Assembly (NCBI GenBank): GCA_016209025.1
Contig: JACQWW010000079.1
Span: forward strand, 1 to 41,749
Direction of reading: 5' to 3'
Length of the DNA: 41,749 bases
Origin: Elusimicrobiota bacterium
GTDB taxonomy: Bacteria > Elusimicrobiota > Elusimicrobia > JACQPE01
The translations under genes and the position numbers were made by a program. Every line of letters begins with the position of its first letter. Within the stretch, counting starts at the first letter, position 1. Below the pieces are notes generated by a model, which saw only the letters and a list, made by a program, of their open reading frames with translations, did not search any database and was not told the DNA's origin. Below, piece after piece: positions 5,016-40,941 of this stretch.

Positions 5016-5058
5016 GTCCGACGGGTCCGACAGGTCTGACATGTCGGACGGGTCTGAC
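5016..5058 (+). repeat. Family B 9-mer array B1, GTCNGACNN x5 (rplL | rpoB gap)
   Basis: 'gtccgacgg gtccgacag gtctgacat gtcggacgg gtctgac'. Confidence 0.9.
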
Positions 5059-5102
5059 GCATTCGCGCTTTCGGGCGCTTTCCGATCTCATGGAGGAATT
5101 TA

Positions 5103-8100
5103 ATGGCCGTTAAAATCAAGCAGATGCTTTTTGAGAAAGCGCCTGTTTATCTCAAAGCTCCCGATCTTCTGGAACTGCAGAAAAATTCCTACGCCAACTT
5201 CCTGCAGAAAGATGTTCCCGGCGAGGCGCGCAAACTTCAGGGGCTTCAAGCCGCCTTTGTGGACCTTTTCCCCATCTCAAACGAGGATGAATCGCTTCTG
5301 CTTGAGTTTATGAATTATTCCGTGGGCGAGTCCCGTTTCTCGGACGCCGGGGAAGCTAAATTTTTCGACAAGTCCTATACGGTTCCCATCAGGGCGAATT
5401 TAAGGCTGATCCACCGCCAGACCTCCGGCAAGGTGAAAGTCATTTCCGAGCAGGAGGTCTTTTTGTGCGACCTGCCTTATATGACCGACGGCGCCTCTTT
5501 CATGATCAACGGCGCCGAGCGGGTCATCGTCAGCCAGCTTCATCGTTCCCCGGGCATTTTCTTCGAAGAAGACGAAGAAAAAAAGGTTTCGCGGTTCGGC
5601 AAGAAGCTTTTTATCGGCCGCGTCATTCCTTACCGGGGCGGCTGGATTGATTTTGAGTTCGATCTCAACAACGTTCTTTTTGCCCGCATTGACAAGCGCC
5701 GGAAGTTTCCTGCCACGGCTCTTTTGCGCGCCTGCGGCCTTGAGACGGACGAAGACATCATCAAGTTTTTTTATACCGTCAAGAATTATCCCATTTCCGC
5801 CGAGCTGCCGGCCGATCAATACGCCGGCCGGATTCTGGCGGCCGACGCCGTTGACTCTGATTCGGGCGAAGTGATTATTGAGGCGGGCCAGCGCCTGGCC
5901 AAGGACGTGCTCGCCAAAATCCAAAAGACCAAAATCAAGGAATTGGCTTTGATCGAATGGGACGAAAAAACGTCCAACGTGACGATTTTAGAGACCCTTA
6001 AAAAAGATCAGCTCAAGTCCCGCAAGGATACCCTCCATTTCCTTTATAAATACATCCGCGGCCAGGAATTCGTCATCCAGCAGCAGGCCGAAGAGTTGAT
6101 GGATAACATGTTTTTCAGCAAAAAATCAAAGCGTTATGACCTGACCCATGTGGGCCGCTACAAGATCATGAAAAAGTTCGGGCTCTTATACGAGTATTTG
6201 GAGTCCCGCAAGCAATGGAGCTTTAAAGCTCCGCCGGCCTCGCGCCGGGAATTGGCGCCCGAAGACATTATCGCCGCGATCATTTACCTGACCTTGTTAA
6301 ACGACGACCGCGAGCGGTGGGAATTTAAAGACCGGACCCTTCTTGTCGGAGTAGATGACATTGATCATCTCGGCAACCGCCGGGTGCGGGCCGTAGGGGA
6401 ACTTTTGGAAAATCAATTCCGCCTGGCTTTGACCCAGATGTCGAGAGTCATCAGGGAGCGCATGGTCCAAGCCCAGGAAAAAAGCGAACTGACCCCCCGC
6501 CAGCTCATCAACGCCTCTGTTTTGAACGGAATCTTAAGGAACTTTTTCGGAAGCTCCCAGCTTTCTCAATTCATGGACCAGATCAATCCCTTGGCGGAGC
6601 TGACCCACAAGCGCCGGCTTTCCGCCTTGGGCCCCGGCGGGCTTCAGAGAAAGCACGCCGGCTTCGAGGTCCGCGACGTGCACCATACCCACTACGGCCG
6701 CATCTGCCCCATCGAAACGCCGGAGGGTCCCAATATCGGCCTTATCACTTCCTTGGCGTTTTATGCCAGGGTCAACGAACTTGGTTTGATCGAGACGCCT
6801 TACCGCAAGGTGGAGAAAGGCCGGGCCACCGGCGAAGTCATCTATTTGACGGCCGACGAGGAAGACGAGGCTGTCATCGCCCAAGCCAACACCATGGTTG
6901 ATGAGAAGGGCAATTTGCTCGGGGACCTGGCATCGTGCCGTTATCGCGGCGATTTTCCCATGGCGGAACCAAAAAATGTCCAATATATGGATATTTCACC
7001 GACCCAGGTTTTTTCGGTGTCAACCGCTCTTTTGCCCTTTTTGGAACACGACGACGCCAACCGCGCCCTTATGGGATCGAACATGCAGCGCCAGGGTGTG
7101 CCGCTGCTTGACCCGGAAAATCCTTTGGTGGCGACCGGCGTTGAGACCAACATCGCCAAGGATTCTCAGGCGGCAATTGTGGCCAAGCGCGCCGGCCGCG
7201 CGGTTTATGTGGACGGCGAACAGATCATCATCCATACCGATGACGCCAAATCGCCGCTTGATGTCTATAAGTTCACGAAATACGAACGGTCCAACCAGGA
7301 TACGGCCGTTGATTACCATCCCATCGTGGCCCACGGCGACCGGGTGGCTTCGGGCGATCCGATCGCCGACGGTCAGTCAACAGCCAAAGGCCAGCTGGCC
7401 TTGGGCAAGAATGTTCTGGTCGCCTTTATGCCCTGGGAGGGTTATAATTTCGAAGACGCTATTTTGGTTTCGGAGCGCCTGGTCAGAGACGACGTTTTCA
7501 AATCCTTTCATATTCAGGAGTTCGAGGTCGAGGCCAGAGAAACCAAGCTCGGCCCGGAGGAGATAACCAGGGACATCCCCAATGTTTCCGCCGAAGCCCT
7601 GGCCCATCTTGATGAGCAGGGCATCGCCGTCGTGGGCACCGAGGTCAGCCATGGGGATATTCTGGTCGGCCGGGTCATTCCCAGGGGCGAAGAGCATTTG
7701 ACGCCCGAGGAGAAGCTCTTGCGCGTGATTTTCGGCAAGAAGGCGGAGGATGTCCAGGACGCCTCCCTGAGAGTTCCGCCGGGCGTGGCCGGCAAGGTCA
7801 TCAAGGTTCAGGTTTTCGTCAGAAAGGAAATCCTCGCCGCCAAGGAAAAGGAGCGATGGAGGCGCGATCTCGACGACCGGGTTCAGGAGGATTTGAAGTT
7901 TATCGAGTCTTTCAAAGACTCGTCCCTTAAGGAACTTGAGGAAAAGAAGAAACAAGGCGCGGTTTCCTCCGAGCAATACCGCCAGGAAAAGCAAGCCGTT
8001 GAGCTTGTGGCCGACAAAAGCAAGCAGGACATTCATGGTTATCGCGACCGGGAACGCGAGAGAATCAAGGCGGGCGACGAGGTGGCGGTCACCGTCAACC

Positions 8101-11800: not shown

Positions 11801-13099
11801 ACCCTAAGGACCTTCCATATCGGCGGCACCGCGGCCCGGGTTGTTTCCAAATCACAGGCTGTTTCAGCCGCCGCCGGAACGGTTGTTTTTAAGAATATCG
11901 AGCTGCTGAAAAGAAAAAGCGGCGAGGTTTTGGTCCATTCGAGAAACAGCGAGATCGCTGTTTTCGATCCGGAAACGAAAACCGAAAAAGAAAGCCACCG
12001 CGTCCCTCATGGGGCCCGCCTCAAAGTCAAAAATTCGGAGAAGGCGCCGGCCGGAACGCTTTTGGCCGAGTGGGATCCTTACGCCCTGCCCATTATGTCG
12101 AAAGTGGAAGGCCAAGTCCGCTATGAAGATATCGAGGAAGGCATCACGACTCATGAGGAGAAAAACAAAATTACCGGACTGACCGAGCGGCGCATTATCG
12201 AACATCGCGAACAAAGAAAACGGCCGAGAATCATCGTGGCGGATCACAAGGGCAAGGAACTTGACGCCTATACCCTGCCGGTGGACACCATCATCGTGAC
12301 GGCCGACGGCGAGCCGGTCGGGCCGGGCGATATTCTGGCAAAAATTCCCCTTGAAGTAAGCATCACCCGCGACATCACCGGGGGGCTGCCCCGCGTTTCC
12401 GAGCTTTTTGAGGCGAGAAGGCCGAAAAATTCAACCGTCATTTCGGAGATTGACGGCGTGGTTTCTTTGGGCACCACGGCCAAGGGCGGCCAGAAAGTGA
12501 TCGTCAGAAACGAGGAAACCGACGTTGTCTGCGAATACAGCATTCCTCAGGGCAAACACCTTATGGTTTACGAAGGAGACCGCGTCGGGGTCGGCGAGGC
12601 TTTGACCGACGGCCCTATCAATCCCCACGATATCCTGAGGGTCAAGGGCCTCAAGGAATGCCAGGAATATCTTGTCTGCGCCATTCAGGAGGTTTACCGG
12701 CTCCAAGGCGTGATGGTCAACGACAAGCATATCGAGCTTATCGTGCGCGAGATGCTGGAAAACGTGCGAATAACCAAAGCCGGCGCAACGCATCTATTGG
12801 TGGGCGAAATCGTCAATCGTTTTGAATTTGAAGAGGAAAACGAGCAGGCGATCAAGGCCAAAAGGGAGCCGGCCGAAGCCCAGGTGGTGCTTTTGGGCAT
12901 CACTAAAGCGGCGCTTTCGTCGAGAAGCTTTATTTCCGCGGCCAGCTTTCAGGAAACAACCAGGGTTTTGACCGACGCGGCCGTCAGCGGCAAGTTGGAT
13001 TTCCTGCGGGGACTCAAAGAAAACGTCATTATCGGGCGTTTGATTCCGGCCGGCACGGGCCTCGCCGCCAGACAGCAGGCAGCGCTGGAGCACAAATGA
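8876..13099 (+). CDS. rpoC: DNA-directed RNA polymerase beta' subunit
   Basis: Zn finger 'CACGKY...CDRCGVEV', catalytic '[14 protein letters not shown]', '[18 protein letters not shown]', '[19 protein letters not shown]'. The ATG overlaps the rpoB TGA. Confidence 0.97.
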
Positions 13100-13121
13100 A
13101 AATTTTACCAGGTAAAATTTT
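13099..13121 (+). repeat. AAAATTTT-stem hairpin F2, overlapping the rpoC stop
   Basis: 'tg aaaattttacc a ggtaaaatttt' (11-bp perfect stem, 1-nt centre). Confidence 0.8.
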
Positions 13122-13188
13122 CGTTAGTTGTTTGTCGTTAGTTGTTTGTCGTTTTGCGATTAACAACCAACGACCGACGACCAACGAA
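13122..13188 (+). repeat. Heptamer hairpin D (rpoC | rpsL gap)
   Basis: 5' arm 'cgttagt tgtttgt cgttagt tgtttgt cgttttg', 3' arm 'aacaac caacgac cgacgac caacgaa'. By eye, 20 of 25 positions are Watson-Crick and 2 more are G.U. Confidence 0.8.
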
Positions 13189-13221
13189 TCACGCGCCGAC
13201 GAGCGCCGCGAGGAGGCGTAG

Positions 13222-13647
13222 ATGCCGACCACCAGCCAACTTTTAAGAATTTTCCGCAGTAAGCGCGCCTACCGTTCCAAGTCGCCGGCTCTGCGCGAAT
13301 GTCCTCAGCGCCGCGGGGTTTGCCTGCGTGTTTACACCACCACGCCGAAAAAACCGAACTCCGCTCTGCGCAAGGTGGCCCGCGTCAAGCTGACCTCCGG
13401 CATAGAGGTGACGGCCTATATCCCGGGCATCGGCCACAATCTTCAGGAACACTCGATCGTCTTGGTGCGCGGCGGCCGGGTAAAAGATCTTCCTGGGGTG
13501 CGCTATCATATCATCCGGGGCGTTTTCGACTGCAGCGGCGTCGATGGCCGCCGGCAGGGCCGCTCCAAATACGGGGCCAAGCAGCCCAAGGAAACGGCAG
13601 CCGGCAAAACGGCCGCGGCGCCGGCCGGGGCAGGAGCTACAAAGTGA
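13222..13647 (+). CDS. rpsL: 30S ribosomal protein S12 (with an Ala-rich C-terminal tail)
   Basis: 'MPTTSQLLR...[70 protein letters not shown]'. Confidence 0.97.
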
Positions 13648-13723
13648 ATATTGAATATGGAATATTGAATATTGGGAAGAATAAAAAATTTCTCCAATAT
13701 TCTACATTCAACATTCTACATTC
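13646..13723 (+). repeat. Family A heptamer hairpin A2 (rpsL | rpsG gap)
   Basis: 'gaatattgaatatggaatattgaatattggg' - loop - 'ctccaatattctacattcaacattctacattc'. It begins on the last 2 nt (13646-13647) of the rpsL TGA (13645-13647). Confidence 0.9.
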
Positions 13724-13743
13724 ACCCCTTTCTTGGAGGTTTT

Positions 13744-14214
13744 ATGCCTAGACGATCCATAGAACGCCGTCCCCCGCCTCAATCGGACGTGCGGTTTTCC
13801 AGCCAACTGGTAAGCCGCCTGATCGGAAAACTGAATTTTACCGGCAAAAAAAACAAGGTCACGCGGATCGTTTACGAGGCGATGGATTTGATCAAGTCCA
13901 AAACCGGCGAGGATCCGGCTGTTGTTTTATCGCGGGGGGTTGAGAACTGCCGTCCTCTGCTTGAAACCAAGCCCCGCCAAGTCGGCGGCGCCACCTATCA
14001 AGTTCCCATCGAGGTGGATTCTTACCGGGGAGAGACGCTCGCCATGCGCTGGATTATTGACTATGCCCGCGCGAGAAAAGGCCAGCCCATGGCCATAAAA
14101 ATAGCCGAAGAAATCATTCAGGCGTCGAGAAAGGAAGGCACGGCTTTTAAAAAACGCGAGGAAATGCATAAAATGGCCGAATCGAACAGGGCGTTCGCCC
14201 ATTACCGATGGTGA
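13744..14214 (+). CDS. rpsG: 30S ribosomal protein S7
   Basis: 'MPRRSIERR...', 'VGGATYQVPIEV', 'KKREEMHKMAESNRAFAHYRW'. I chose the ATG at 13744 after SD 'ggagg'. The longer track ORF (13672) runs through a repeat element. Confidence 0.93.
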   Translation: MPRRSIERRPPPQSDVRFSSQLVSRLIGKLNFTGKKNKVTRIVYEAMDLIKSKTGEDPAVVLSRGVENCRPLLETKPRQVGGATYQVPIEVDSYRGETLAMRWIIDYARARKGQPMAIKIAEEIIQASRKEGTAFKKREEMHKMAESNRAFAHYRW

Positions 14215-14220
14215 AAGAAT

Positions 14221-14306
14221 GACGCGGCGACGGGGAGACGCGGTGACGCGGGGAAAGTTTGGTTTTGGATTTTTTAATCTCCGCGTCCCCGCGTCCCCGT
14301 GTCTCC
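14221..14306 (+). repeat. Octamer hairpin C (rpsG | fusA gap)
   Basis: 5' arm 'gacgcggc gacgggga gacgcggt gacgcggg g', loop 'aaagtttggttttggattttttaat', 3' arm 'ctccgcgtcc ccgcgtcc ccgtgtct cc'. The arms are largely complementary. Confidence 0.85.
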
Positions 14307-14321
14307 GAGTCAGGAGCATCG

Positions 14322-16406
14322 GTGGCTAGACAATTCCCTCTCGAAAAAGTCCGCAATATCGGCATTATCGCCCACATTGACGCCGGCAAAACAACGACCA
14401 CGGAGCGCGTTCTTTTTTATACGGGACGCATCCATAAAATCGGCGAAGTTCATGAAGGAACGACCACCACGGACTGGATGCCGCAGGAGAGGGAGCGCGG
14501 CATCACCATCACCTCAGCCGCGACTTATGTGACATGGAAGGATTGTCATCTCAACATTATTGACACTCCCGGCCATGTGGATTTTACGGCCGAAGTGGAA
14601 CGAAGCTTGAGGGTGCTTGACGGCGCCATCATTGTTTTTGACGGGGTGCAGGGCGTCGAGCCCCAATCGGAGACGGTGTTCAGGCAGGCCGACAAATACA
14701 ATGTTCCCCGGCTTTGCTTTATCAACAAAATGGATAGAATCGGGGCCGATTTTTATATGTCGGTAAAATCCATCAAGGATCGCCTGGGGGCCAATTGCTC
14801 GCCCGTGTCCCTGCCGATCGGCGCCGAAGAAAATTTTCGCGGCATCATTGATTTGATCGCCATGAAAGCGGTTTATTGGGACGACAAGGAAGGCGCCAAA
14901 TATCATGCCGAGGAGATCCCCTCGGACCTTGTTGATTCAGCGAAAAAATGGCGTGATGGTCTGCTCGAAAAAGTGTCGGAATTCGATGATGCCTTGCTGT
15001 CGAAATATATCGAGGGCAAAGCCGTCGAGGAAAGCGAAATCAAGGCGGCCGTCAGGAAAGGGACGCTGACGGGAAATTTTTTTCCGGTTTTTGCCGGAGC
15101 CGCCTATAAAAACAAAGGCGTTCAGCCGCTTTTGGACGGGGTCTGCGATTTTCTGCCGAATCCCTCGGATATTCCGCCGACCAAAGGCAAGGATCCCGAT
15201 ACCGACCGGGAGATTGTGCGCAAAATTGACGATCAAGAGCCTTTCTGCGCTCTCATCTTCAAGATTCAGACGGATCCATATGTCGGGAAGCTTTCGTATT
15301 TCAGAGTCTATAGCGGCGAACTGACAACGGGTATGATGGTCTACAATACGCGCCGCAGCACGACCGAGCGCATCGGCCGGCTTTTAAGGATGCACGCCCA
15401 GCATCGCGAGGAAATCAAAGAAGTCCGAACCGGCGATATCGCGGCGACCGTGGCCATGAGAAATGCGTCAACGGGCGATACGATTTGCCTTGAAAACAGT
15501 CCCATAGTGCTTGAAGAAATCAAGTTCCCAGACACGGTCATATCGGTGGCCATCGAGCCCAAAACCAAAGCGGACGAAGAAAAGCTCGGCGTTGCTTTGA
15601 TGCGGCTGGCCGAAGAGGACCCGACCTTTCGGGTTAAACGCGATCAGGAAACGGCCCAGACGATCATTTCAGGAATGGGCGAGCTTCATCTTGAAATTTT
15701 GGTTGACCGCATGAAGCGGGAATTCAGCGTTCTGGCCAATATCGGCAAGCCCATGGTGGCTTACAAGGAGACGATTAAAAAGAAGGTTCAGCAGGAAGGC
15801 AAGTATATCCGCCAAACCGGGGGCCGCGGGCAGTATGGTCATGTCTTTTTGGAAATCGAGCCGCGCGAGCGCGGCGCAGGACTTCTTTTTGAGAGCAAGA
15901 TTTTCGGCGGCGTGGTCCCGCGGGAATACGTGCCCGCGGTTGAGAAAGGCGTCAAGGAAGCCGTGGATGAGGGGGCTCTGGCCGGATACCCCATCGTTGA
16001 TCTGCATGTAACCCTGGTGGACGGTTCCTACCATGAAGTGGATTCGTCGGAAATAGCTTTTAAAATCGCTTCAGCCATGGCTTTGAGGGCTGGCTGCAAG
16101 AACGCCAACCCGGTGCTTTTGGAGCCCATTATGAAATTCGAGGTGTCTACGCCCGAAGATTACATGGGCGACGTCATTGGGGATTTGAATTCGCGCCGGG
16201 CCAAGGTGCTCGACATGCAGACCCGCGGGAATGCTAAAATAATACGCGGCACTGTGCCTCTTGCCGAAATGTTCGGCTACGCCACGACAGTGCGCAGCCT
16301 TTCCCAAGGCCGGGCGTCGTTTAATTTGGAGCCGTCTCACTATGAAGAGGTTCCCCGCCCGATCCAGGAAGCTATTGTTGCCAAAGCGGCCGGGGATAAA
16401 AGATAA
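14322..16406 (+). CDS. fusA: Elongation factor G
   Basis: '[26 protein letters not shown]', '[25 protein letters not shown]', 'INKMDR'. GTG at 14322 lies 5 nt after 'aggag'. The upstream part of the track ORF lies in a repeat. Confidence 0.95.
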
Positions 16407-16425
16407 GTCCGACAGGTCGGACAGG
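16407..16425 (+). repeat. Family B 9-mer array B2, 2 units (fusA | tuf gap)
   Basis: 'gtccgacag gtcggacag g', immediately after the fusA TAA. Confidence 0.7.
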
Positions 16426-16444
16426 TTAAAGGAGGAAAAACAAA

Positions 16445-17641: not shown

Positions 17642-17645
17642 AGCT

Positions 17646-17729
17646 GGAATATAGAATGTGGAATATAGAATATTGGAGCAAGAAAGACCTCTTTGTTTTC
17701 CTACATTCAACATTCAATATTCAATATTC
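17646..17729 (+). repeat. Family A heptamer hairpin A3 (tuf | rpsJ gap)
   Basis: 'ggaatatagaatgtggaatatagaatattgg' - loop - 'cctacattcaacattcaatattcaatattc'. Confidence 0.9.
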
Positions 17730-17740
17730 TGAGTAATTCT

Positions 17741-18112
17741 ATGACAGCGAAGGAAGGCAAAGAAAAATCGTCGGCTGCGGAAGCGGCCGCCAAAGCCGTT
17801 TTACCGTCGGAGCAGCACATCCGCATCAGGCTGCGCTGTTACGATCACAAGATGCTCGATGAGTCGGTTGAAAAAATTGTGGCGACGGTGCGGCGCACCG
17901 GCGGGGTGATCATAGGGCCCGTTCTTTTGCCCACCAAGCGCAAGCTTTACACGGTGCTGCGTTCCCCTCATGCGGACAAAAAATCAAGGGAACAGTTCGA
18001 GTTGCGCATTCATAAACGGCTGATTGATCTTAAAGAGCCGACGCCGAGAACGATCGACGAATTGATGAAACTTGATCTGCCGCCCGGCGTGGACGTGGAA
18101 ATCAAACTATGA
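17741..18112 (+). CDS. rpsJ: 30S ribosomal protein S10 (with a short N-terminal extension)
   Basis: '[71 protein letters not shown]'. The ATG at 17741 is the first start after repeat A3. Confidence 0.92.
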
Positions 18113-18134
18113 AAATTTTACCCGGTAAAATTTT
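18112..18134 (+). repeat. AAAATTTT-stem hairpin F3, overlapping the rpsJ stop
   Basis: 'tg aaaattttacc c ggtaaaatttt', nearly identical to F2. Confidence 0.8.
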
Positions 18135-18150
18135 CAGGTGCGCAAGAACA

Positions 18151-18192
18151 TCTGACCCGTCAGACATGTCTGACTCGTCTGACAAGTCTGAC
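18151..18192 (+). repeat. Family B 9-mer array B3, 5 units (rpsJ | rplC gap)
   Basis: 'tctgac ccgtcagac atgtctgac tcgtctgac aagtctgac'. Confidence 0.9.
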
Positions 18193-18229
18193 GCGCGTGC
18201 GTTTAATTTTTTGCGAAGCGAGGAATTCC

Positions 18230-18982: not shown

Positions 18983-19003
18983 CGATAAACAAGAAGCAGG
19001 AAA

Positions 19004-23974: not shown

Positions 23975-24017
23975 GTCCGACCCGTCAGACCTGTCCGACA
24001 TGTCAGACATGTCGGAT
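23975..24017 (+). repeat. Family B 9-mer array B4, 5 units (rplX | rplE gap)
   Basis: 'gtccgaccc gtcagacct gtccgacat gtcagacat gtcggat'. It contains the hairpin 'ccgacatg tcaga catgtcgg'. Confidence 0.9.
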
Positions 24018-28909: not shown

Positions 28910-28931
28910 TAATGAAAAAAGAGGAGGCGTC

Positions 28932-30364: not shown

Positions 30365-30575
30365 AGAGGAGAAAATTATTTTGGAAGGGGTCGTAACGGA
30401 AGCTTTGCCCAACGCCATGTTCCGGGTTAACGTGGGCAATAATCGCATCTGCCTGGCGCATGTTTCCGGTAAAATGCGCATGCATTTTGTGCGGATTTTG
30501 CCTGGAGACAAAGTGCGCGTCGAGCTTTCTCCCTATGATTTGACGCGCGGCCGCATCACCTATAGATTGGAATGA
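30357..30575 (+). CDS. infA: Translation initiation factor IF-1
   Basis: '[64 protein letters not shown]'. Confidence 0.97.
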
Positions 30576-30604
30576 GGAAAATTTTACGATGTGCTCATCG
30601 AATA

Positions 30605-30637
30605 TCCGACCCGTCAGACCTGTCAGACATGTCCGAC
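30605..30637 (+). repeat. Family B 9-mer array B5, 4 units (infA | rpmJ gap)
   Basis: 'tccgaccc gtcagacct gtcagacat gtccgac'. Confidence 0.9.
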
Positions 30638-30656
30638 GATCGAAGCGAGGTGTAAT

Positions 30657-30770
30657 GTGAAGGTTCGCAGTTCGATCAAGCCGATTTGCCAGAAATGCAA
30701 GGTGATTCGGCGCCACGGAGTCGTAAGGATAATTTGCAAAAATCCAAGGCACAATCAGAGGCAAGGATGA
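30657..30770 (+). CDS. rpmJ: 50S ribosomal protein L36
   Basis: Hand translation from the GTG at 30657 gives '[37 protein letters not shown]'. It is absent from the ORF track (below the size cutoff). GTG lies 6 nt after 'cgaagcgagg'. Confidence 0.92.
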
Positions 30771-30774
30771 AAGC

Positions 30775-30859
30775 GAGAATGTGGAATGTTGAATATGGAA
30801 TATTGGGGAGGAATGACTTTCTATTTCTTCCAGCATTCAACATTCAATATTCAATATTC
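30775..30859 (+). repeat. Family A heptamer hairpin A7 (rpmJ | rpsM gap)
   Basis: 'gagaatgtggaatgttgaatatggaatattgggg' - loop - 'ccagcattcaacattcaatattcaatattc'. Confidence 0.9.
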
Positions 30860-30890
30860 ACGTTCATGAATTTTGTCAATGGAGGTTTAA

Positions 30891-31316
30891 ATGGCTAGAG
30901 TAGCCGGCGTTGACTTGGCCGCTCATAAACGGGTGGATGCGGCTTTGATCCGTATCTACGGGATCGGACCGAACAATGTCCGCGTTATTTTAAAAAACGC
31001 CCAAATACCCGGCGAGACCCGCGTTAAAAATTTGAACGAAGCCCAATTGGCGGCTCTTAACGCGGTTATCGCCAAAGATTTTCGCGTTGAGGGCGAATTG
31101 CGCCGGGATATTGAAGCCGATATCCGCCGCTATATTGAAATCGGATGCTATCACGGCCAGCGTCACCGCCGCAATCTGCCGGTCCGCGGGCAGAGAACGC
31201 GCACTAATGCCCGCACCAGGCGCGGTTCAAGGCGGACGGTGGGAGCCGTCAAGCCGGGCATCAAAGAGGCGCCTGCCCAGCCGGCTGCTTCCAAACAACC
31301 GGCCAAGAAGCCATGA
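30891..31316 (+). CDS. rpsM: 30S ribosomal protein S13
   Basis: 'MARVAGVDL', 'IYGIGPNN', 'IEIGCYHGQRHRRNLPVRGQRTRTNARTRRG'. Confidence 0.96.
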   Translation: MARVAGVDLAAHKRVDAALIRIYGIGPNNVRVILKNAQIPGETRVKNLNEAQLAALNAVIAKDFRVEGELRRDIEADIRRYIEIGCYHGQRHRRNLPVRGQRTRTNARTRRGSRRTVGAVKPGIKEAPAQPAASKQPAKKP

Positions 31317-31339
31317 AAATTTTACAGTGAGGTGCTTTA

Positions 31340-31750
31340 ATGGCAACTGAGAGAAAACCTGAATCAGGACCTTCAAGACGCCAAGACAGGCGCAAGTTCG
31401 GCGCTATCGAGCAGGCCAGGGCCTATATTCATTCGTCGTTCAACAATACGATCGTGACATTCACCGATGAGCGGGGGCAGGTGTTGATTTGGGCGAGCGC
31501 CGGCCTATGCGGTTTTAAAGGGACAAAAAAAGGCACGCCTTATGCCGCCCAAATTGCCGCCGAGCGGGTGGCCAAACGGGCTTTGGAAATCGGCGTGCGC
31601 AGCGTTTCGGTTTTTGTCAGGGGGCCGGGGCCGGGCAGGGAAGTCGCCATCCGCACGCTTCACGCGGCGGGGCTGAGAATTTTATCCATCAAGGATATCA
31701 CACCATTGCCCCACAACGGCTGCCGGCCGCCCAAAGCGAGAAGAGTATGA
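31340..31750 (+). CDS. rpsK: 30S ribosomal protein S11
   Basis: '[28 protein letters not shown]', '[17 protein letters not shown]', '[21 protein letters not shown]'. Confidence 0.97.
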
Positions 31751-31762
31751 ACGAGGTGTTTT

Positions 31763-32398
31763 ATGTCTAATCTTCACGCGCCGGTTTGCCGGCGCTGCCG
31801 CAGAGAAGGCGCGAAGCTTTTTCTTAAGGGTGAAAAATGTTTCATTAAATGCGTTGTCGAAAAGAGGCCTTTTGCGCCGGGCCGGGCCGGCAAGTCAAGA
31901 ACACGCAAAAAAACGACGGATTACGGCATTCGCCTGCGGGAAAAGCAAAAGCTTAAAAAAATGCTGGGAATCAATGAAGCTAAAATGAAGCTTTATTATG
32001 AAAGAGCCCAGCGGATGCCCGGCAGAACCGGCGAGAATCTTTTAAAACTCGTGGAGATGAGGCTCGACAACGTTGCACGGCGCCTTGGGCTGGCCACCAG
32101 TCCCAGGTTTGCCAGGCAGTTGGTCGGCCACGGCCATGTTTTAATCGGCGGCAGGCGCATAACGGTTCCTTCCTATGAGGTCAAGCCTGGAGACATTCTG
32201 GAGCTTAAAGGCTTGAAGAATAATTTTTTTGTGGATCTTTCCCGGCAGAATTTCGAGCGCCGCGGCGGCGTTTTGCCGGGCTGGCTCAACTGGGACAGCG
32301 CTTCGCAGAAAGGCCGGGTTTTGCGTCTGCCGGAAAAAGGCGAGCTTTCTTTTCCGATTAATGATCAATATATCGTGGAGTTTTATACCCGAAGATAG
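31763..32398 (+). CDS. rpsD: 30S ribosomal protein S4
   Basis: 'CRRCRREGAKLFLKGEKC', 'YGIRLREKQKLKKM', 'LEMRLDNVARRLGLATSPRFARQLVGHGHVLIGGRRITVPSYEVKPGD'. Confidence 0.96.
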   Translation: MSNLHAPVCRRCRREGAKLFLKGEKCFIKCVVEKRPFAPGRAGKSRTRKKTTDYGIRLREKQKLKKMLGINEAKMKLYYERAQRMPGRTGENLLKLVEMRLDNVARRLGLATSPRFARQLVGHGHVLIGGRRITVPSYEVKPGDILELKGLKNNFFVDLSRQNFERRGGVLPGWLNWDSASQKGRVLRLPEKGELSFPINDQYIVEFYTRR

Positions 32399-32403
32399 CA
32401 AGA

Positions 32404-32516
32404 GAGAATGTCGAATGTGGAATATGGAATATGGGGTGAAAAAAAGAAAAAAAAGAAAATGCGAGGGCCGCTTTTATTCTTTTCGTCCAATATTCTACAT
32501 TCCATATTCTATATTC
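32404..32516 (+). repeat. Family A heptamer hairpin A8, long-loop variant (rpsD | rpoA gap)
   Basis: 'gagaatgtcgaatgtggaatatggaatatgggg' - ~45 nt A-rich loop - 'ccaatattctacattccatattctatattc'. Confidence 0.88.
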
Positions 32517-32541
32517 GAGTTTTAAGAGGAGGAATGAAAAC

Positions 32542-33597
32542 ATGACTGAGGCGCCGGTTCAAATGAGCAAGGAATTAATTTTTCCAACAAGAGTGAATTT
32601 TGACAAAGAGAAGCTGACCGACAATTATGGGCGTTTTACCGTCGAGCCTTTGGAACGAGGCTGGGGCTACACGATCGGCAATTCTTTGCGCCGCATTTTG
32701 CTTTCAAGCCTTGACGGCGTCGCCGTGACCGCGGTCAAGATCGCCGGGGTCCGCCACGAGTTTACGGCCTTAAAGGGCGTCAAAGAGGACGTGCTGCATA
32801 TTTTGCTTAATTTTAAGAAGCTCAGGCTCAAGCTTTTTTCCGATGGGCCGGAAATTCTTTATCTCCAAGCTGAAAAAAGCGGCGAGGTCAAGGCTTCGCA
32901 GATCAGGCAGACGCCTAACGTGGAGATTTTAAGCAAAGAATTGGCGATCGCTACGCTTGAGCCGGGCGCCAAACTGGATATCGAAATCGAAATATCACGG
33001 GGCCGCGGATACCTGCCGAGAGAGAGCAATCAACGCGAAGGCCGCGCCGCGGGATTCATCGCCGTTGATGCCTTGTTTTCACCGGTAGTCAAAGTCAATT
33101 ACGATGTCGAGCACGCCCGCGTCGGCCACATTACCGATTACGATAAGCTCCTTATTGACGTCTGGACGGACAGCTCGGTGACGCCGCCCGAAGCGGTCAT
33201 CAAAAGCCTCAAGATCCTTTCGGGCCTGGCCGGGACCCTGCTTGGGGCGTTGTCCGACGGCGGCAAGAAAAACAGCCCGGCCGCGGCTCCCGCGGCGGAC
33301 GAGGAGACGGCTCTTCATGATGTGACGGAAGAAATCGGCAAGACCAAGACATCGGATTATTCCCAGGCTTTAAGGGACCCCAAAATCCAGGAGACCTTGA
33401 ATCAGCCGATTGAAGCGCTGGAACTGGTCCCCCGGACCCTTAATTGCCTGAAAGTCGCCCACATCAAGATCATACGTGAATTAGTCCGCAAAACGGATGA
33501 AGAGCTTTTGGCGTATAAGAATTTCGGAGAGAAATCCTTGAACGAAGTCAAGGAAAGACTCAAAGAGCTGGGCTTAAATATCGGAATGAAAGCATGA
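32542..33597 (+). CDS. rpoA: DNA-directed RNA polymerase alpha subunit
   Basis: 'GRFTVEPLERGWGYTIGNSLRRILLSSLDGVAVTAVKI', C-terminal domain 'IEALELVPRTLNCLKVAHIKIIRELVRKTDEELLAYKNFGEKSLNEVKERL'. Confidence 0.96.
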   Translation: MTEAPVQMSKELIFPTRVNFDKEKLTDNYGRFTVEPLERGWGYTIGNSLRRILLSSLDGVAVTAVKIAGVRHEFTALKGVKEDVLHILLNFKKLRLKLFSDGPEILYLQAEKSGEVKASQIRQTPNVEILSKELAIATLEPGAKLDIEIEISRGRGYLPRESNQREGRAAGFIAVDALFSPVVKVNYDVEHARVGHITDYDKLLIDVWTDSSVTPPEAVIKSLKILSGLAGTLLGALSDGGKKNSPAAAPAADEETALHDVTEEIGKTKTSDYSQALRDPKIQETLNQPIEALELVPRTLNCLKVAHIKIIRELVRKTDEELLAYKNFGEKSLNEVKERLKELGLNIGMKA

Positions 33598-33968: not shown

Positions 33969-34971
<1,003 letters not shown>

Positions 34972-34973
34972 AA

Positions 34974-35015
34974 TCAGACGGGTCGGACAGGTCCGACATG
35001 TCGGACCTGTCCGAT
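34974..35015 (+). repeat. Family B 9-mer array B7, 5 units (mreB | mreC gap)
   Basis: 'tcagacgg gtcggacag gtccgacat gtcggacct gtccgat'. Confidence 0.9.
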
Positions 35016-36395: not shown

Positions 36396-38193
36396 GAAAG
36401 CCGCCTGGCTGAGGCTGCTTATGTTTTCGTTTTTCGCGGTTTTCGGCCTGCGTCTTTTTTTTCTTCAGGTCGTTTTCGGCCGCCATTACCGCCTTCTGGC
36501 CGAAAGAAACCGTTTTCAGATTTTTTACCGCCAAGCGCCGCGCGGAACCATTCTGGACCGGACCGGTTATCCCTTGGCATCCAATATCGGCGTTTTCAAC
36601 CTGTATTTCAACCCTAATTTCTTGGTGGAGGATGCCGAAGACCGGGTCAGGGTTATTTCCGGAATTTTAAATTTAAAGCTCGACGACTTGCGGCGCGCCG
36701 TCAAGACGGCCAGAGTCGGCCGCAAAACCAGCCTGGCGGCAAGGCAGATTTCCCCGGAAGCGGCCTTTCGTTTTTTTGAGAAGCAGGAGTCTTATCCCGA
36801 ATTTTTTCTGACCTCGGAGTCTTTGAGGTATTATCCTTTAGGGGAAGCCTTTGCCCATGTCGTCGGTTATTTGTCGCGCATACGTTCAAGGGTAGAGTTC
36901 GAAAAACTCAAAGATCAAGGCTACCGCTATGATTCATGGCTGGGAGGCTATGGTTTGGAGAAGCTTTTCGAGCAGCACTTGCGCGGCTGTGACGGGGCCG
37001 TTTTGATCGAGGTTGACGTTCATGGCCGGCCTCTGTCGCAAAGCCGTCCGGCGCAGGAGGCGAGCGGGGAAAAGCGAAGCCAGGCCGGCGTCTCCCTTGT
37101 TGAGGATTCCTATCCCGGCAATGACATGGAATTGACGATTGATCATCGTTTGATTATGGCGGCCCACCAAGCGCTCAAAGCTTCGTCTTCGGGCGCCGGT
37201 TCGGTGGTGGCCCTTGATCCGCGCAGCGGGGCAGTGCGCGCCTTGGTTTCCACTCCCGGCTTCGACCCCAACGGCTATATCCGCCTTACCCTGGAGAAAC
37301 CCGAAGTGCTTTTGCGCGCGGAATTTCCCAGGGCCCTGACCGGTCTTTATCCGCCCGGCAGCGTATTTAAAGTCATCACCGCGATCGCGGCCCTGGAAAA
37401 GGGGCTTGATCCGGCAAGGCGTTTCCGCTGCATGGGCAAATTCGCGCTTCCGGGCCGGACCTTTAAGTGTTGGAAGGAAGAAGGGCATGGGTCCCTCGAC
37501 TTCATCGAAGGAATTCGCAACTCATGCGATGTTTATTTCTATAACGCAGGGCTTTTTGCGGGCGGCGAAGCCATCAGTTCCTGGGCGCTCAAGTTTTCAT
37601 TGGGGCGTTCCATAACGGTCAAAGAATTTCCAGAGTGGTCCAAAAAGGGCTTTATTCCGACGCCCCGATGGAAGGAGGAGAAAAAAAAGGACATCTGGCG
37701 TCCGGGCGATACGCTGAATTTAGCCATCGGCCAGGGCGAGGTTCTGACGTCGCCCCTTCAGCTGGCCGCACTTTTCGCCATGCTGGCTGGCCGCGGCCGG
37801 CTGGCCCAGCCTTATATCATCGAGGCTTTGAAAAATCCGTCGGGCGGGGTTTTTTGGAGGAACAAACCCGTCCTGGCCGATGATTTTAAAATTCCGGCGG
37901 TTTCGGATAAGACATGGCAGCTACTCGAGGCGGGGCTGCGTTCCGTCGTCGTCGAGGGGACGGGCCGCGGGGCCAATATCGCCGGCTACGATATTTACGG
38001 CAAGACCGGCACGGCGCAGAATCCCCTGGGCAAAGATCACGCTCTTTTCGCCTGCTACCTTAAGGATGCGTCCGGCACGCCGCGCCTGGCCGTAAGCGTC
38101 GTGGTTGACAACGGGGGCCAGGGCTCCGTTGCCGCGGTGCCGGTTGCCAGGCGGGTGCTCGAAGAGTTCATTAAAGAGGAATTCGGTGGCTAA
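36379..38193 (+). CDS. mrdA: Penicillin-binding protein 2 (elongasome transpeptidase)
   Basis: N-terminal TM segment, 'RGTILDRTGYPLA', SxxK 'PPGSVFKVITA', 'RNSCDVYF', 'YGKTGTAQ'. Confidence 0.9.
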   Translation: MATLSEKAAWLRLLMFSFFAVFGLRLFFLQVVFGRHYRLLAERNRFQIFYRQAPRGTILDRTGYPLASNIGVFNLYFNPNFLVEDAEDRVRVISGILNLKLDDLRRAVKTARVGRKTSLAARQISPEAAFRFFEKQESYPEFFLTSESLRYYPLGEAFAHVVGYLSRIRSRVEFEKLKDQGYRYDSWLGGYGLEKLFEQHLRGCDGAVLIEVDVHGRPLSQSRPAQEASGEKRSQAGVSLVEDSYPGNDMELTIDHRLIMAAHQALKASSSGAGSVVALDPRSGAVRALVSTPGFDPNGYIRLTLEKPEVLLRAEFPRALTGLYPPGSVFKVITAIAALEKGLDPARRFRCMGKFALPGRTFKCWKEEGHGSLDFIEGIRNSCDVYFYNAGLFAGGEAISSWALKFSLGRSITVKEFPEWSKKGFIPTPRWKEEKKKDIWRPGDTLNLAIGQGEVLTSPLQLAALFAMLAGRGRLAQPYIIEALKNPSGGVFWRNKPVLADDFKIPAVSDKTWQLLEAGLRSVVVEGTGRGANIAGYDIYGKTGTAQNPLGKDHALFACYLKDASGTPRLAVSVVVDNGGQGSVAAVPVARRVLEEFIKEEFGG

Positions 38194-39494
38194 ATCCAAG
38201 GAATTTATCAGCCCGATTTTAGTCGGCCGCCTTGAAGAGGGACGCCCTTCTTTGCGCTATCAGTTCTTCGGCCTTGACGTGATGCTTGCGGCGATCTGCG
38301 CGCTTTTGCTTGGAATCGGGGCCATAGTGGTCTACACTTCGCTTTACGGCTCAACGGCTTTTGAAAGTCTATGGATGCGGCATTTGACGGCCCTGGGCAT
38401 CGCCGGCCTGGTTTGTCTGGTCATGTTTTTTTTGCCCCAATCGGCCGTGGCGGAAGCCGGCGGCCTTATTTACGGTTTTTCCATTCTGCTTTTAATCATG
38501 GTGCTTTTTTTCGGCAAGGTTATTCATGGCTCAAAATCCTGGTTTTCTATGGGGCCTTTTCAATTCCAACCCAGTGAATTCGCCAAATTCGCCGTCATTA
38601 TATATATGTCCAGCGTGACGGTGCGCGGCCGGGAAAAAGACCCCCTGCTTTCCTGGGGCTGCCGGTTTCGGGTGATCGGCCTGGCCGCCTTGGCCCTGGT
38701 CCTAGTGCTGTCCCAGCACGATGTTTCAGGCGCGATCAGCTTTTGTTTTATTGCCCTGACCTACGCCTGGCTGCTGGAGATGTTCTCAGGCCGGTTTATC
38801 GGGGCCATGGCTGTTTTTGGGATTTTGAGTTTTTTAAGCCTTCTTTGCCACATCACCGCCGGCTTGAATTTGAAAGATTCGGCGGCCCTGTCCGCTTTTT
38901 TGATTCGTTGGGGATTCGGGCCCGGCGCCGCCTTTGCCAAAGGACTTCTGTGGGCCGGCGCCATGCTGGCCTTAAGCGCAGCCCTTTACCGGCTTTTAAA
39001 AGGGCTTTTCGTCCTTTCTCCAAAAACATCGTGGCTTTGGACTCTTGCCATCGCCGCTATTCTGATCGGGTCAAACGGGGCCGGATATTTGGGCTGGAAA
39101 GCGCTCAAAGGCTATCAAAAAAACAGATTGGTCAGTTTTGTCTTTCCCCGCGCCGATCCGCTCGGCTCCGGATATAATGTGACTCAGTCAAAAATCACCG
39201 TCGGTTCCGGCGGTTTTATCGGCAGGGGCATTCTTCTCGGCAGTCAGGCAAGCCTGGGTTTTTTGCCGGAAAGGCATACTGATTTCGCTTTCGCCGCCCT
39301 GGGTTGTGGCTTTGGGACTTTTCGGCTTGTGGTTCGGCGAGGTGGCCGTCAACATTGCCTGCGTGCTGGGCCTTTTTCCGGTTTTAGGCATCGGCCTGCC
39401 CTTTATTTCTTACGGAGGATCAAGGCTGGTGATCAATGGAATGGAGATCGGACTGCTTTTGGCGATTTCAAGGGAGTTCTATGTGTACCGATAA
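38186..39494 (+). pseudogene. rodA: SEDS-family RodA, frame broken near 39300 by loss of about 36 codons (or an assembly error)
   Basis: The frame from GTG 38186 reads '...FQPSEFAKFAVIIY...GYNVTQSKITVGSGGFIGRG...LPERHTDFAFAAL' and then becomes non-homologous. The +1 frame (track ORF 39306-39494) holds the conserved C-terminus '...VAVNIACVLGLFPVLGIGLPFISYGGSRLV...'. The segment expected between them (E. coli 'AEELGLVG...RAQTTFGRVMAGG') is missing. Confidence 0.7.
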
Positions 39495-40908
39495 AAAAGT
39501 TGAAATCATTCTTGAAAAAGCGGCGGCCCTTTCCATGCGGCCTTCTCAGTATGCCGGCTGGGAAATCGGTTCAACGGCAGAGAAAACCGGGGAAGCGGCC
39601 AGGCGCATCGCCCTGGTGTGCCCTCGGCCATATGAAAAAGCCATGCAGGATGATTGCTTGCTCGATCTTTACGGCGGTCTGGCCGCCTGCTGTAGCGTAT
39701 GCCCGGAAAGAATTTTTTTACCCGGCCAGGATTACTTGGAAAAACTCGCTTTTTTCGGGGAAACCAGAAAATGGTTTTCCCTTGAAAGCAAGGCGCCTTT
39801 GGAGTTTTTTGACGATTTTATCCTTTTTCCGGGCGCCGGGGCCGACGGCGATCTTGGCCGCCCCGCTTCGCAGCCCCATTCCGGAGGTCTGGGACGTTTG
39901 GAGTCCCAGAGGGACGTGACGAGCTTCGGGGACGGATCTACGGCCGGGGGCCTTGGCCGCCGGCTTGAGCAGGCGGTTCGCGATTTGTGCCGGGATTCTC
40001 AAAAGCGGCTATGGGAAGCGGCTCTAATCAATCAAGGCGCCGGACAAAGCGGCGCTTCGGATATCATGGGCCGGCTGGGCTTGGAGGCCGGGACCGGGAA
40101 TCTTCCCCTTATCGCCTATCACAGCTGGGAAAGGACGTTTGCGGCAGCCGGTCCGGCGCAAGACGCCGGCGGCCGGCGGATTTACGCCGGGACGGCAAGA
40201 CGAACCGCTTCTTTGCGGGCACGGCTTGTGCGCCACGGCTGGTCGCGTTTCGTCTCCCACCTGGAACAGATTCAGATTTTTAAAAACGCCGTTTTGCTGG
40301 CCGGCCTGCCGGCGGCGCGAAGCCGGACGAAGAAGCCGAGGCTGAAAATGAGCTTTGGGCCGGCGGTCGGAGTCGGCTGGGAATCAAGCTCGGAATTTTT
40401 CGATATCATGCTCGAAGAGCCGGTCCAAATTGAGACTTTCAGCGAACGGCTGAAATCCTGCCTGCCGCTTGGCTATGAGCTTGGCTGGGTGGGCCGCATT
40501 CCGGTTTATTTTCCCAGTCTCGAAGAAAGCGCCAACCGGGCTGATTTTTGGATTGAGGAAAAATATGAGCCCGGAGGGGTTGATTGGCAAAGGCTTTTTG
40601 AATGGTTTCGCCGCCTTTCCCAGGAAGGCCGCGAGCCGCTGATCGTTAAAAAGGAAAAACCGGGGAAAAAAATAGACCTCATCAATGTCGCCGAAATCGT
40701 CGCCGCCGTCTCCCTGGGAATTTCGCAAAGCGGCGGCAATGTCGGGGTCAAGCTGTCTTTGCGCTATGGGCCTAAAAAAAATTTGAAGCCTGAAAAGATT
40801 TTGGAAATCAGTCTGGGATTGACGCCGGAGTTCATTGAGACCCGGTTGAGGATTTGCCGGACGGCTTTGGCCCTGGAGTCCCGCGACGGCAGACTTAGGT
40901 ATCTTTAG
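39481..40908 (+). CDS. Radical-SAM-linked protein (DUF2344/TIGR03936-like C-terminal domain) fused to a degenerate N-terminal fragment. No radical-SAM core is present
   Basis: C-terminal half 'SRFVSHLEQIQIFKNAVLLAGLPAARSRTKKPRLKMSFGPAVGVGWESSSEFFDIMLEE' resembles the DUF2344 pattern (RF[IL]SHLDL..RA.RRAGLP..YS.GF.P.PK[IM]SF..AL..G..S..E). The N-terminal ~130 aa resemble the start of the partner rSAM family ('RPSQYAGWEIG', 'CPRPYEKAM', 'FSLESKAPLEFFD'). The ATG at 39481 follows 'agggag'. Confidence 0.5.
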   Translation: MCTDKKVEIILEKAAALSMRPSQYAGWEIGSTAEKTGEAARRIALVCPRPYEKAMQDDCLLDLYGGLAACCSVCPERIFLPGQDYLEKLAFFGETRKWFSLESKAPLEFFDDFILFPGAGADGDLGRPASQPHSGGLGRLESQRDVTSFGDGSTAGGLGRRLEQAVRDLCRDSQKRLWEAALINQGAGQSGASDIMGRLGLEAGTGNLPLIAYHSWERTFAAAGPAQDAGGRRIYAGTARRTASLRARLVRHGWSRFVSHLEQIQIFKNAVLLAGLPAARSRTKKPRLKMSFGPAVGVGWESSSEFFDIMLEEPVQIETFSERLKSCLPLGYELGWVGRIPVYFPSLEESANRADFWIEEKYEPGGVDWQRLFEWFRRLSQEGREPLIVKKEKPGKKIDLINVAEIVAAVSLGISQSGGNVGVKLSLRYGPKKNLKPEKILEISLGLTPEFIETRLRICRTALALESRDGRLRYL

Positions 40909-40941
40909 TCGGACATGTCCGACGGGTCGGACAAGTCTGAC
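40908..40941 (+). repeat. Family B 9-mer array B8, 4 units (DUF2344-like gene | RNase E/G gap)
   Basis: 'gtcggacat gtccgacgg gtcggacaa gtctgac'. The first g is the last base of the upstream TAG stop. Confidence 0.9.

Follow-up and report, generated by a model that had tools for sequence, protein, structure and literature searches.

Arrays of a palindromic nonamer between the genes of ribosomal and cell-shape operons in an Elusimicrobia contig

We have analysed a 41,749-nt stretch of DNA (the window) that is an entire contig of a metagenome-assembled genome (MAG) from the Elusimicrobia. Within it lie eight arrays of a nine-nucleotide repeat, GTCNGACNN, each of two to five units, with 34 units in total when those at the edges are included. 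Their reality is confirmed and their occurrence is strongly non-random; none of them is coding, and all occupy the intercistronic spacers of long co-directional operons. We tentatively favour a reading, to which we give a little less than even probability, in which they are intercistronic repeats akin to the short tandemly repeated repetitive (STRR) and repetitive extragenic palindromic (REP) elements, transcribed as register-flexible hairpins that would punctuate the operon mRNA. A description of the GTCNGACNN family, which we term family B, was found neither in a literature search nor in Rfam; searching the literature for GTCNGAC returned only operator strings of the GntR/FadR type.

Census and composition of the arrays

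Pattern searching recovered an array at each of the eight coordinates given in the initial annotation. The two-unit pattern GTCNGACNNGTCNGAC matches the window 21 times when overlaps are allowed, whereas 100 dinucleotide-preserving shuffles give a count of 0.00. There are 32 perfect GTCNGAC heptamers where 5.15 are expected, and 29 of these lie inside arrays. Tandem Repeats Finder reports a period of 9 at all eight sites, and a period of 18 at three. On allowing two mismatches the window contains 27 matches against 0.82 expected, the additional ones comprising only degenerate edge units (ATCTGAC, ATCCGAC, ATCAGAC, GTCGGAT and GTCCGAT) and one chance-level site in rplB. The same search revealed no decayed array copies in the window, and thus the arrays are sharply bounded. 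No array match falls within the coding sequence of the window, all eight copies in 41.7 kb being extragenic.

The core of the unit is an interrupted palindrome, GTC-N-GAC, of 7 nt, with a 2-nt spacer (NN). When the units are aligned in register T2, C3, G5 and A6 are invariant (34/34 each), while G1 is found in 31 and C7 in 32 of the 34, with deviations confined to the edges of arrays. Position 4 is near-random (C12, T8, G8, A6); the information content is 0.05 bits at positions 4 and 9, and 0.31 bits at position 8. None of the 26 adjacent pairs of units is identical. There is an 18-nt superperiod, with N(i)=N(i+2) in 9 of 18 cases (p=0.03), and the spacer AT is over-represented in the window, at 7/26 compared with an expectation of 1/16 (p=8e-4).

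A number of familiar origins for such repeats were considered and rejected. A coding nonamer repeat, such as collagen Gly-Pro-Thr or a Ser-Asp-x linker, is excluded by the location of the window arrays between a stop codon and the next start. A transposon footprint or 9-bp target duplication predicts identical spacers or neighbours, contrary to what we find. Avoidance of restriction sites is not indicated, as TCNGA outside the arrays is near expectation (134 versus 160), and CRISPR arrays have repeats of 23-50 nt with unique spacers of similar length, in contrast to the short units here.

The contig derives from short-read assembly, and its start is probably an assembly tip arising from repeated 23S inserts, with the 5' third of the 23S gene missing; bases 1-95 are 100% identical to 262-356, a 23S segment beside a repeated insert. 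This could suggest that the arrays too are collapsed or chimeric low-complexity sequence. However, they are no longer than 43 nt, and therefore shorter than a read, each has its own N/NN pattern and flanks, and the flanking genes are intact. A comparable 9-mer cassette in a related contig (L122, discussed below) is identical in an independent Logan assembly, and similar arrays are present in the genomes of isolates, for example Prevotella ihumii. We regard an assembly artefact as exceedingly improbable.

The window begins with a partial 23S gene and 5S, an open reading frame (ORF) with a putative signal peptide, rplJ-rplL, rpoB-rpoC and rpsL-rpsG-fusA-tuf. It continues through the S10, spc and alpha clusters to mreB-mreC-mreD-PBP2-rodA-DUF2344-RNase E/G, with all genes on the + strand. 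Every one of the eight arrays is intercistronic, located between co-directional genes of that strand, 0-40 nt past the upstream stop and 7-44 nt ahead of the next start codon. Array A1 (5016..5058, on the + strand like all those that follow) comprises five units, GTCCGACGG GTCCGACAG GTCTGACAT GTCGGACGG GTCTGAC, in the rplL|rpoB gap, at a distance of 40 nt from the rplL stop and 44 nt from the rpoB ATG. A2 (16407..16422) has just two units, GTCCGACAG GTCGGAC, beginning right after the fusA TAA and stopping 22 nt before the tuf ATG. A3 (18150..18192) has five units in the rpsJ|rplC gap, the first being ATCTGAC, and A4 (23975..24017) has five in the rplX|rplE gap, the last being GTCGGAT. Four units make up A5 (30604..30637) in the infA|rpmJ gap, beginning with ATCCGAC, and four make up A6 (33969..34002) in the rplQ|mreB gap, where the array adjoins GCGAAGCGAGG. 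A7 (34973..35015), in the mreB|mreC gap, contains five units with ATCAGAC and GTCCGAT at its edges, and stops 7 nt ahead of the mreC ATG. Finally, A8 (40908..40941) has four units in the DUF2344|rng gap, and its first G also serves as the final base of the DUF2344 TAG stop codon. The location of the arrays in + strand gaps between a stop and the next start codon is one reason for thinking that they punctuate mRNA.

The SDx reading frame running over the arrays, and the spurious ORFs that result from it, are real on inspection, as the initial annotation had stated. These might be taken for leader peptides (MSDxSD...), starting at the ATG in GAC-ATG-TCN, with termination coupled to initiation downstream. 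Six arrays hold such an ATG, which comes from the AT spacer that is enriched in the window. Short MSDGSD... ORFs of 8-29 codons are found at 5014-5103, 18166-18237, 24000-24035 and 30629-30655, and four ORFs end at or by the next start codon, in TAATG at rpoB, ATGGCTGA at rplC, TAA-G-GTG at rplE and TAA-T-GTG at rpmJ. Yet no Shine-Dalgarno sequence lies upstream of the array ATGs, and TAA at 1-4 nt before a start codon is common in the contig, array or none. Two arrays lack an ATG altogether, and two of the ORFs continue for hundreds of nucleotides into the next gene in a different frame. It is nucleotides that are constrained (the codon is always GAC, and the x codons always end in G) and not amino acids, and the AT spacer is not enriched in other genomes (6/146), where AA and TT are commonest and AT is rare. 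Given the lack of a Shine-Dalgarno sequence, the general frequency of TAA before start codons and the constraint on nucleotides, the short ORFs are probably coincidental. A leader peptide function seems to us very improbable.

A shared cassette among interchangeable hairpins

Arrays A3 to A6, and in part A1, are set in a common frame consisting of a stop codon with AAAATTTT, the array, (T)CCGAC-GAGCGAAGCGAGG, a few bases and then the start codon; A2, A7 and A8 lack it. Upstream of A3 the frame (module 1, 18110..18136, + strand) is a TGA stop codon fused to the palindrome TGAAAATTTTACCCGGTAAAATTTTCA. The full palindrome TGAAAATTTTACCnnGGTAAAATTTTCA is found at 13097-13123 and 18110-18136 and a split copy at 4973-5008, with half copies (stop codon plus AAAATTTT) at 23956, 24637, 30576, 31314 and 33954. 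Nine genes end in a stop codon joined to AAAATTTT, and positions 3337-3359 of L122 are also among the sites. The 23-mer of module 1 is present in the relative L122/L124 and absent from all other loci compared. The AAAATTTT palindrome could be an A/U-rich site for RNase E/G or for the binding of S1.

The downstream frame (module 3, 18213..18223, + strand) reads GCGAAGCGAGG, comprising a GCGAAGC mini-hairpin and a GAGG Shine-Dalgarno sequence, with further copies at 24020, 26483, 30640 and 34003. Beyond the window and L122/L124, GCGAAGCGAGG was found at only two other loci of those compared. Within the cassette module 3 is preceded by (T)CCGAC, that is, by one array core. The GAGCGAAGCGAGG cassette at the ribosome-binding site (RBS) is usually followed by TAA 1-4 nt ahead of the start codon. 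Since the frame motifs are clade-specific and the downstream frame contains a TCCGAC core, the arrangement points to the RBS cassette as the source of a seed from which the arrays expanded.

At least some of the arrays are paralogous copies of one cassette. Of the 10 variable positions, 8 are shared between A4 and A5 (uncorrected p=7e-4), and the two arrays agree in both flanks, from which we conclude that they are paralogous. This relationship, with the shared flanks and the 18-nt superperiod, is further support for the punctuation reading. The contig L122 has the same two frames placed around a hairpin made of a different 9-mer (GGTTCAAGA / TCTTGAACC), the downstream frame there (L122 position 3468) reading TTTCCGAGCGAAGCGAGG. 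That the same framing modules can surround a hairpin of different sequence again argues for punctuation.

L122 is one of three relatives that share the gene order. The best MreC matches in the protein collection share only 50, 46 and 42% identity with that of the window, and the three contigs retain rplQ-mreB-mreC-mreD-PBP2-rodA-DUF2344-rng. No gap in any of them contains a GTCNGAC array, each having just one isolated heptamer. The closest relative, L121, has short plain gaps, with 5 nt between infA and rpmJ compared with 80 nt in the window. L122, whose MreC is 46% identical yet which has kept the framing modules, and L125 both have tandem-unit hairpins of other kinds, located in different gaps. 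The absence of arrays from the gaps of these three relatives shows that they are lineage-specific insertions that are not needed for the operon to work.

On inspecting every gap in the contig, we find that all 19 of those longer than 40 nt hold exactly one tandem-unit element. Eight have nonamer arrays, eight have GAATRTN heptamer hairpins and three have elements of other tandem-unit types, and the two main families A (heptamers) and B (nonamers) are never in one gap. Every long gap is occupied by one of three or four kinds of tandem-unit module, interchangeable with each other, of which the arrays are one. The GAATRTN hairpins have arms of about four heptamers, and are located at 4484-4560, 13648-13730, 17642-17735, 23534-23630, 24850-24975, 25376-25495, 30771-30865 and 32402-32522. 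The other types are a TCGTTAG/TTGTTTG heptamer element in the rpoC|rpsL gap, an AAGTCTG heptamer element in the 23S|5S gap, and an octamer hairpin, (GACGCGGN)4 ... (CCGCGTCN)4, at 14218-14315 in the rpsG|fusA gap. This last extends into the longest fusA ORF, so that the true fusA start is probably downstream of 14311. The heptamer and octamer hairpins are built of 6-bp or 7-bp helices with a single mismatch at each unit boundary, and have 40 G·U pairs on the sense strand versus 20 on the antisense. The presence of one element in each gap, with families A and B mutually exclusive, and the excess of G·U pairs on the sense strand in the heptamer and octamer hairpins both point towards a role in mRNA. 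Neither this wider hairpin system, the paralogous cassettes nor the TCCGAC seed in the conserved RBS cassette was part of the initial annotation.

Hairpins of a related kind are present in the rRNA genes. GAAGTCT-type heptamer hairpins of 85-140 nt are located at 99-238, 871-1010, 1557-1696 and 2895-2985. Those of AAGTCTG type are inserted into the 23S gene at about 565 and about 1218 (positions in the Rfam model), corresponding to the regions of helices 25 and 45, and at a third site, with a related copy in the 23S-5S spacer. Helices 25 and 45 are the classical positions of the 23S intervening sequences (IVS) excised by RNase III (PMC4990558, PMC2801512). The inserts resemble intervening sequences, in which case the 23S rRNA would be fragmented. 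The contig thus has heptamer hairpins both in mRNA gaps and at IVS-type sites, and this is another argument for punctuation; it ties the class of tandem-unit hairpins to processing of the RNase III type. By contrast, no family B nonamer array was found in the rRNA, and the link from these sites to family B is an analogy of position only.

Hairpin or recognition site

The initial annotation had described the units as near-palindromic, and this is borne out, the units being interrupted palindromes and every array folding to a hairpin. The pairings that it quoted in what it called B4 ('ccgacatg tcaga catgtcgg') and B7 ('gtccgac at gtcggac') are reproduced on folding. Relative to shuffles, the z-scores of the gaps containing A1 to A8 are -1.67, -2.91, -4.10, -3.94, +0.52, -0.88, -7.19 and -4.04 respectively, with five of the eight at or below -2.9. 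The gap with A1 folds at -40.1 kcal/mol. A2 forms a 6-bp hairpin and A4 a 10-bp stem, CCGACAUG...CAUGUCGG, and A7 is a near-perfect 15-bp palindrome with GACATGTC at its centre (-29.4 kcal/mol). A3 is closed by a GUGCGC/GCGCGUGC stem followed by UUUAAUUUUUU, and there is a terminator-like site at 18190-18203; in the same gap, G·U pairing is predicted between the GAGG and a run of U. The ability of all the arrays to fold, with the z-scores of those five gaps, is consistent with hairpins that punctuate the mRNA.

The hairpins are not intrinsic terminators in general, as only the A3 gap has a terminator-like tail, and A2, A7 and A8 lead directly into the RBS. Scanning the window at the gathering threshold in Rfam identified only 23S and 5S, and no covariance model in Rfam 15 matched the arrays at either the gathering threshold or E<=1. 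Matches of microRNA-like Rfam models to the heptamer hairpins are at chance level and were rejected.

A number of observations weigh against a hairpin as the selected feature. The gaps of A5, A6 and A1 (three of the eight) fold no better than shuffled sequences. The antisense strand of the arrays folds about equally well, and family B has three G·U pairs on the + strand versus eight on the -, so there is no sense-strand bias. When the N and NN positions were permuted within each array while keeping the cores, the natural order was no more stable than the permutations (mean z of -0.3 to -0.5 in the window). The same test on 42 noncoding mixed-N arrays from other genomes gave a mean z of -0.14 (p=0.39). 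The centres of adjacent units are complementary in 9 of 26 cases, against the 25% expected. Since permutation leaves the stability unchanged, the capacity to fold is a property of the invariant GTC/GAC triplets alone. The invariance of six positions, with a random N and no decay, looks more like sequence-specific recognition than structural constraint. To this must be added the lack of arrays in the orthologous gaps of the three relatives, which indicates that any function is not essential.

Fixed half-sites with a free centre and spacer are the pattern expected for recognition by a symmetric dimer, and this keeps alive the idea of an operator. The arrays could therefore be multi-site platforms for a sequence-specific oligomerising protein that controls the downstream gene. 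On DNA each GTC-N-GAC would be bound by a symmetric dimer, in the manner of ribbon-helix-helix (RHH) proteins on MetJ metboxes or omega heptads; on RNA the GUC/GAC triplets would be read by a ring or filament protein resembling TRAP. The metboxes (AGACGTCT in two to five copies) and omega heptads are tandem 7-8-bp palindromes or pseudopalindromes, present in 2-10 copies that each bind one dimer, and metbox arrays alternate GAC and GTC triplets. TRAP reads GAG/UAG triplets on RNA. Family B resembles the iterated operators of RHH proteins in its tandem palindromic units with fixed bases and free spacer bases, and the two to five units are as in the known examples of MetJ and omega; it differs in having a period of 9 in place of 7-8. 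A platform would account for the six invariant positions with their free centre and spacer, for the absence of decayed copies and for free positions that are not selected for pairing.

The location of the arrays is unlike that of an operator. All the sites are intra-operonic beside an RBS, and not at promoters; no sigma-70-like promoter was found at any array within 13000-32999, using a crude consensus that may not be that of the phylum. The orthologous gaps of relatives lack arrays, and the arrays and hairpins unrelated to them in sequence are interchangeable. Among the genes of the window there is no candidate for the binding protein, and a palindrome has no obvious meaning for a protein that binds single-stranded RNA. 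Of the alternatives offered in the initial annotation, operator-like sites or RNA hairpins, the palindromic units and the folding have stood, with the qualification that the folding is due wholly to the invariant triplets, and the operator does not agree well with the location. We consider a protein platform to be unlikely.

The occurrence of arrays in other genomes bears on each of these readings. We scanned one genome per species for three consecutive units and obtained at least 120 loci, assigning taxa by record title. Among the matches listed, 42 are from bacteria of the Planctomycetes-Verrucomicrobia-Chlamydiae (PVC) group (Verrucomicrobia, Lentisphaerae, Kiritimatiellae and Planctomycetes), 25 from Bacteroidales and 16 from Actinomycetota. 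The remainder include Armatimonadota, Acidobacteriota, Hydrogenedentota, Nitrospirota, deltaproteobacterial groups and others, with only one match labelled Pseudomonadota and one Clostridia. The initial annotation held that the element is not specific to ribosomal genes, and we see now that it is not even specific to one phylum. These cross-phylum counts need care, as many of the database matches are collagen-like Gly-Pro-Thr repeats, clear in viral contigs, or Ser-Asp-x linkers. The matches are heterogeneous, including some homogeneous repeats in long ORFs, some coding look-alikes and many genuine noncoding arrays of mixed N. Five Verrucomicrobia proteins (L014, L015, L018, L057 and L060) have an in-frame SDxSDx array between DLTGLPP and YGERWARHWLD. 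These arrays lie at the same point in the protein, and their x residues (W, M, K, L, E, T and P) make no obvious protein sense.

Using a crude gene caller, which miscalls two of the eight window arrays as coding, 77 arrays among the matches listed were called as coding, and the noncoding arrays lie in 28 co-directional, 13 convergent and 5 divergent gaps. The prevalence of co-directional and convergent gaps among these noncoding matches supports a role in mRNA, and the rarity of divergent gaps (5/46 among the matches listed) counts against a DNA platform, although the presence of noncoding arrays with the same core in many phyla among those matches is in its favour. In Prevotella ihumii an eight-unit array (L091, 2720-2840) lies at the tip of a hairpin, the base of which is formed by an inverted repeat of 23 bp, unique in sequence. 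This array and that at L023 1060-1160 sit inside a repeated element whose flanks are conserved; in L091, G·U pairing of the central positions would occur on just one of the strands.

When metagenomes were scanned for three units preceded by AAAATTTT, 28 loci were obtained. Four of the contigs (L128 416-523, L146 639-717, L148 173-278 and L151 517-590) have flanks that are ~90% identical, and in them GTCNGACNN units pass straight into CTCNGAGNN units. Because both kinds occur together in these four, the general unit may be written [G/C]TCNGA[C/G]NN. Between the four contigs no core column varies, in contrast to N, NN and the number of units. Arrays at one locus therefore turn over by whole units, with the cores persisting, and a platform would be expected to keep its core columns in this way.

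The same turnover is consistent with functionless mini-satellites, created by slippage or in-register template switching that the palindromic core promotes, and tolerated only where nine-base insertions are harmless, in intergenic spacers and protein loops. The arrays are lineage-specific and absent in relatives, unit number and N/NN vary between related contigs despite their closely similar flanks, and there is the 18-nt superperiod and no structural optimisation of the variable positions. In addition, family B gaps adjoin gaps with other families of short tandem repeat, nonamer arrays directly abut heptamer arrays in some other genomes, and some matches elsewhere are in frame within proteins. 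However, neutral decay should strike the core as it does N, and we find no internal changes in the core and no decayed arrays. There is a single element in each long gap, arrays never being stacked, and the framing modules are conserved with a relative as distant as L122. On balance we judge it rather unlikely that the arrays lack function.

Relation to known repeats, and a possible role

Family B is lineage-specific, non-coding and intercistronic, and belongs to a family of tandem-unit palindromes. Its nearest published counterpart is the STRR hairpin of filamentous cyanobacteria, formed by heptamers between the co-transcribed genes hupS and hupL, for which a role in transcript stability or translational coupling has been proposed (PMC2670836). 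This published analogue is part of our case for the punctuation of mRNA. Both are composed of short head-to-tail units in noncoding DNA that form hairpins between the genes of one operon, and the family A heptamers of the window are very close to the STRR description. Unlike the STRR unit, which is of 7 nt and is not itself palindromic, that of family B has 9 nt, with an invariant interrupted palindrome and free positions. The hosts also differ: STRR elements are found in heterocystous or filamentous cyanobacteria, whereas family B is in the Elusimicrobia, with similar nonamers in many phyla.

In genomic behaviour the nearest elements are REP and their paired form REPIN (PMC3116915), which are short imperfect palindromes, multicopy, extragenic, often intra-operonic, transcribed, able to form hairpins and related by descent (PMC3116915, PMC3337134). 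Family B likewise consists of multicopy extragenic palindromes, with its eight copies and the eight of ten variable positions shared by A4 and A5. A REP consists of one palindrome, ~20-40 nt long and specific in sequence to its genome, in contrast to a contiguous array of two to five units with variable N and a core that is found across phyla. A REPIN comprises two inverted REPs with a spacer, while the units of family B are contiguous, without a spacer between inverted copies. REP elements act as stabilisers of mRNA, and the REP, BIME and REPIN elements go together with cognate RAYT (Y1) transposases. The MITE-like Correia/NEMIS and ERIC elements insert between co-transcribed genes and give RNA hairpins at which RNase III or RNase E cleaves, altering the stability of the mRNA; these are 100-150 bp in length, with terminal inverted repeats and target-site duplications, and are not nonamer arrays.

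The best reading of family B is thus as dispersed short tandem repeats of STRR/REP type, restricted to a lineage and having a 9-nt unit that contains an interrupted palindrome. On this reading the arrays would have arisen through duplications of 9 and 18 nt that began from the cassette's TCCGAC seed, together with copying between gaps. They would be transcribed as part of the polycistronic mRNA, where any unit could pair with any other to give a moderately stable hairpin of flexible register just upstream of the next RBS. Such a hairpin might impede exonucleases or serve as a site of processing, so punctuating the operon mRNA and uncoupling the stability and translation of adjacent cistrons, for example rplL, tuf, rpsJ, rplX, rpmJ and mreB. 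The operon as such would not depend on the element. Neither simple slippage nor a purely structural role accounts for a core that stays invariant while the free positions are random, or for the lack of decayed copies, and it is mainly for this reason that we keep the protein platform and the functionless repeat as serious rivals.

Three points on the genes of the contig should be mentioned. The mreB gene is split into an N-terminal ORF of 51 codons (34020-34175) and one of 274 codons (34147-34971) that fits the MreB profile from position 63 onward, caused either by a frameshift together with a small deletion or by an error in sequencing. The ORFs of rodA (38105-39919) and DUF2344 (39436-40908) overlap by ~480 nt, and the choice of start codon, or a frameshift, needs checking. 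Lastly, an ORF of 262 codons at 3162-3950 is located between the 5S rRNA and rplJ, where rplK-rplA would be expected. It has an N-terminus resembling a signal peptide and Phe as its last residue, has no match in Pfam, and may encode an outer-membrane beta-barrel protein.

Ribosomal-protein operons are usually among the most compact and conserved parts of a bacterial genome, and here each long spacer owes its length to a palindrome built of repeats, 8 of the 19 being nonamer arrays. If the arrays act on mRNA they would provide post-transcriptional tuning of the stoichiometry of the ribosome, RNA polymerase and cell-shape proteins in a little-studied phylum, and compact natural insulator hairpins would be gained. 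Were the GTC/GAC triplets instead read by a protein, their occurrence across phyla would indicate an undescribed regulator. More doubtful still is the extended proposal that the triplets mark a platform for an oligomerising protein (RHH-like on DNA, or a TRAP-like G(U/A)C reader) common to Elusimicrobia, PVC bacteria, Bacteroidales and others, setting the relative expression of the cistrons of core operons. If this were true, the arrays would set relative expression in the operons of RNA polymerase, EF-Tu, ribosomal proteins, MreB/MreC and RNase G, and would be a previously unrecognised expression system. Even if the arrays are junk a mechanism is needed, because an invariant core with a random centre and spacer and no decay is unlike the prediction of simple slippage.

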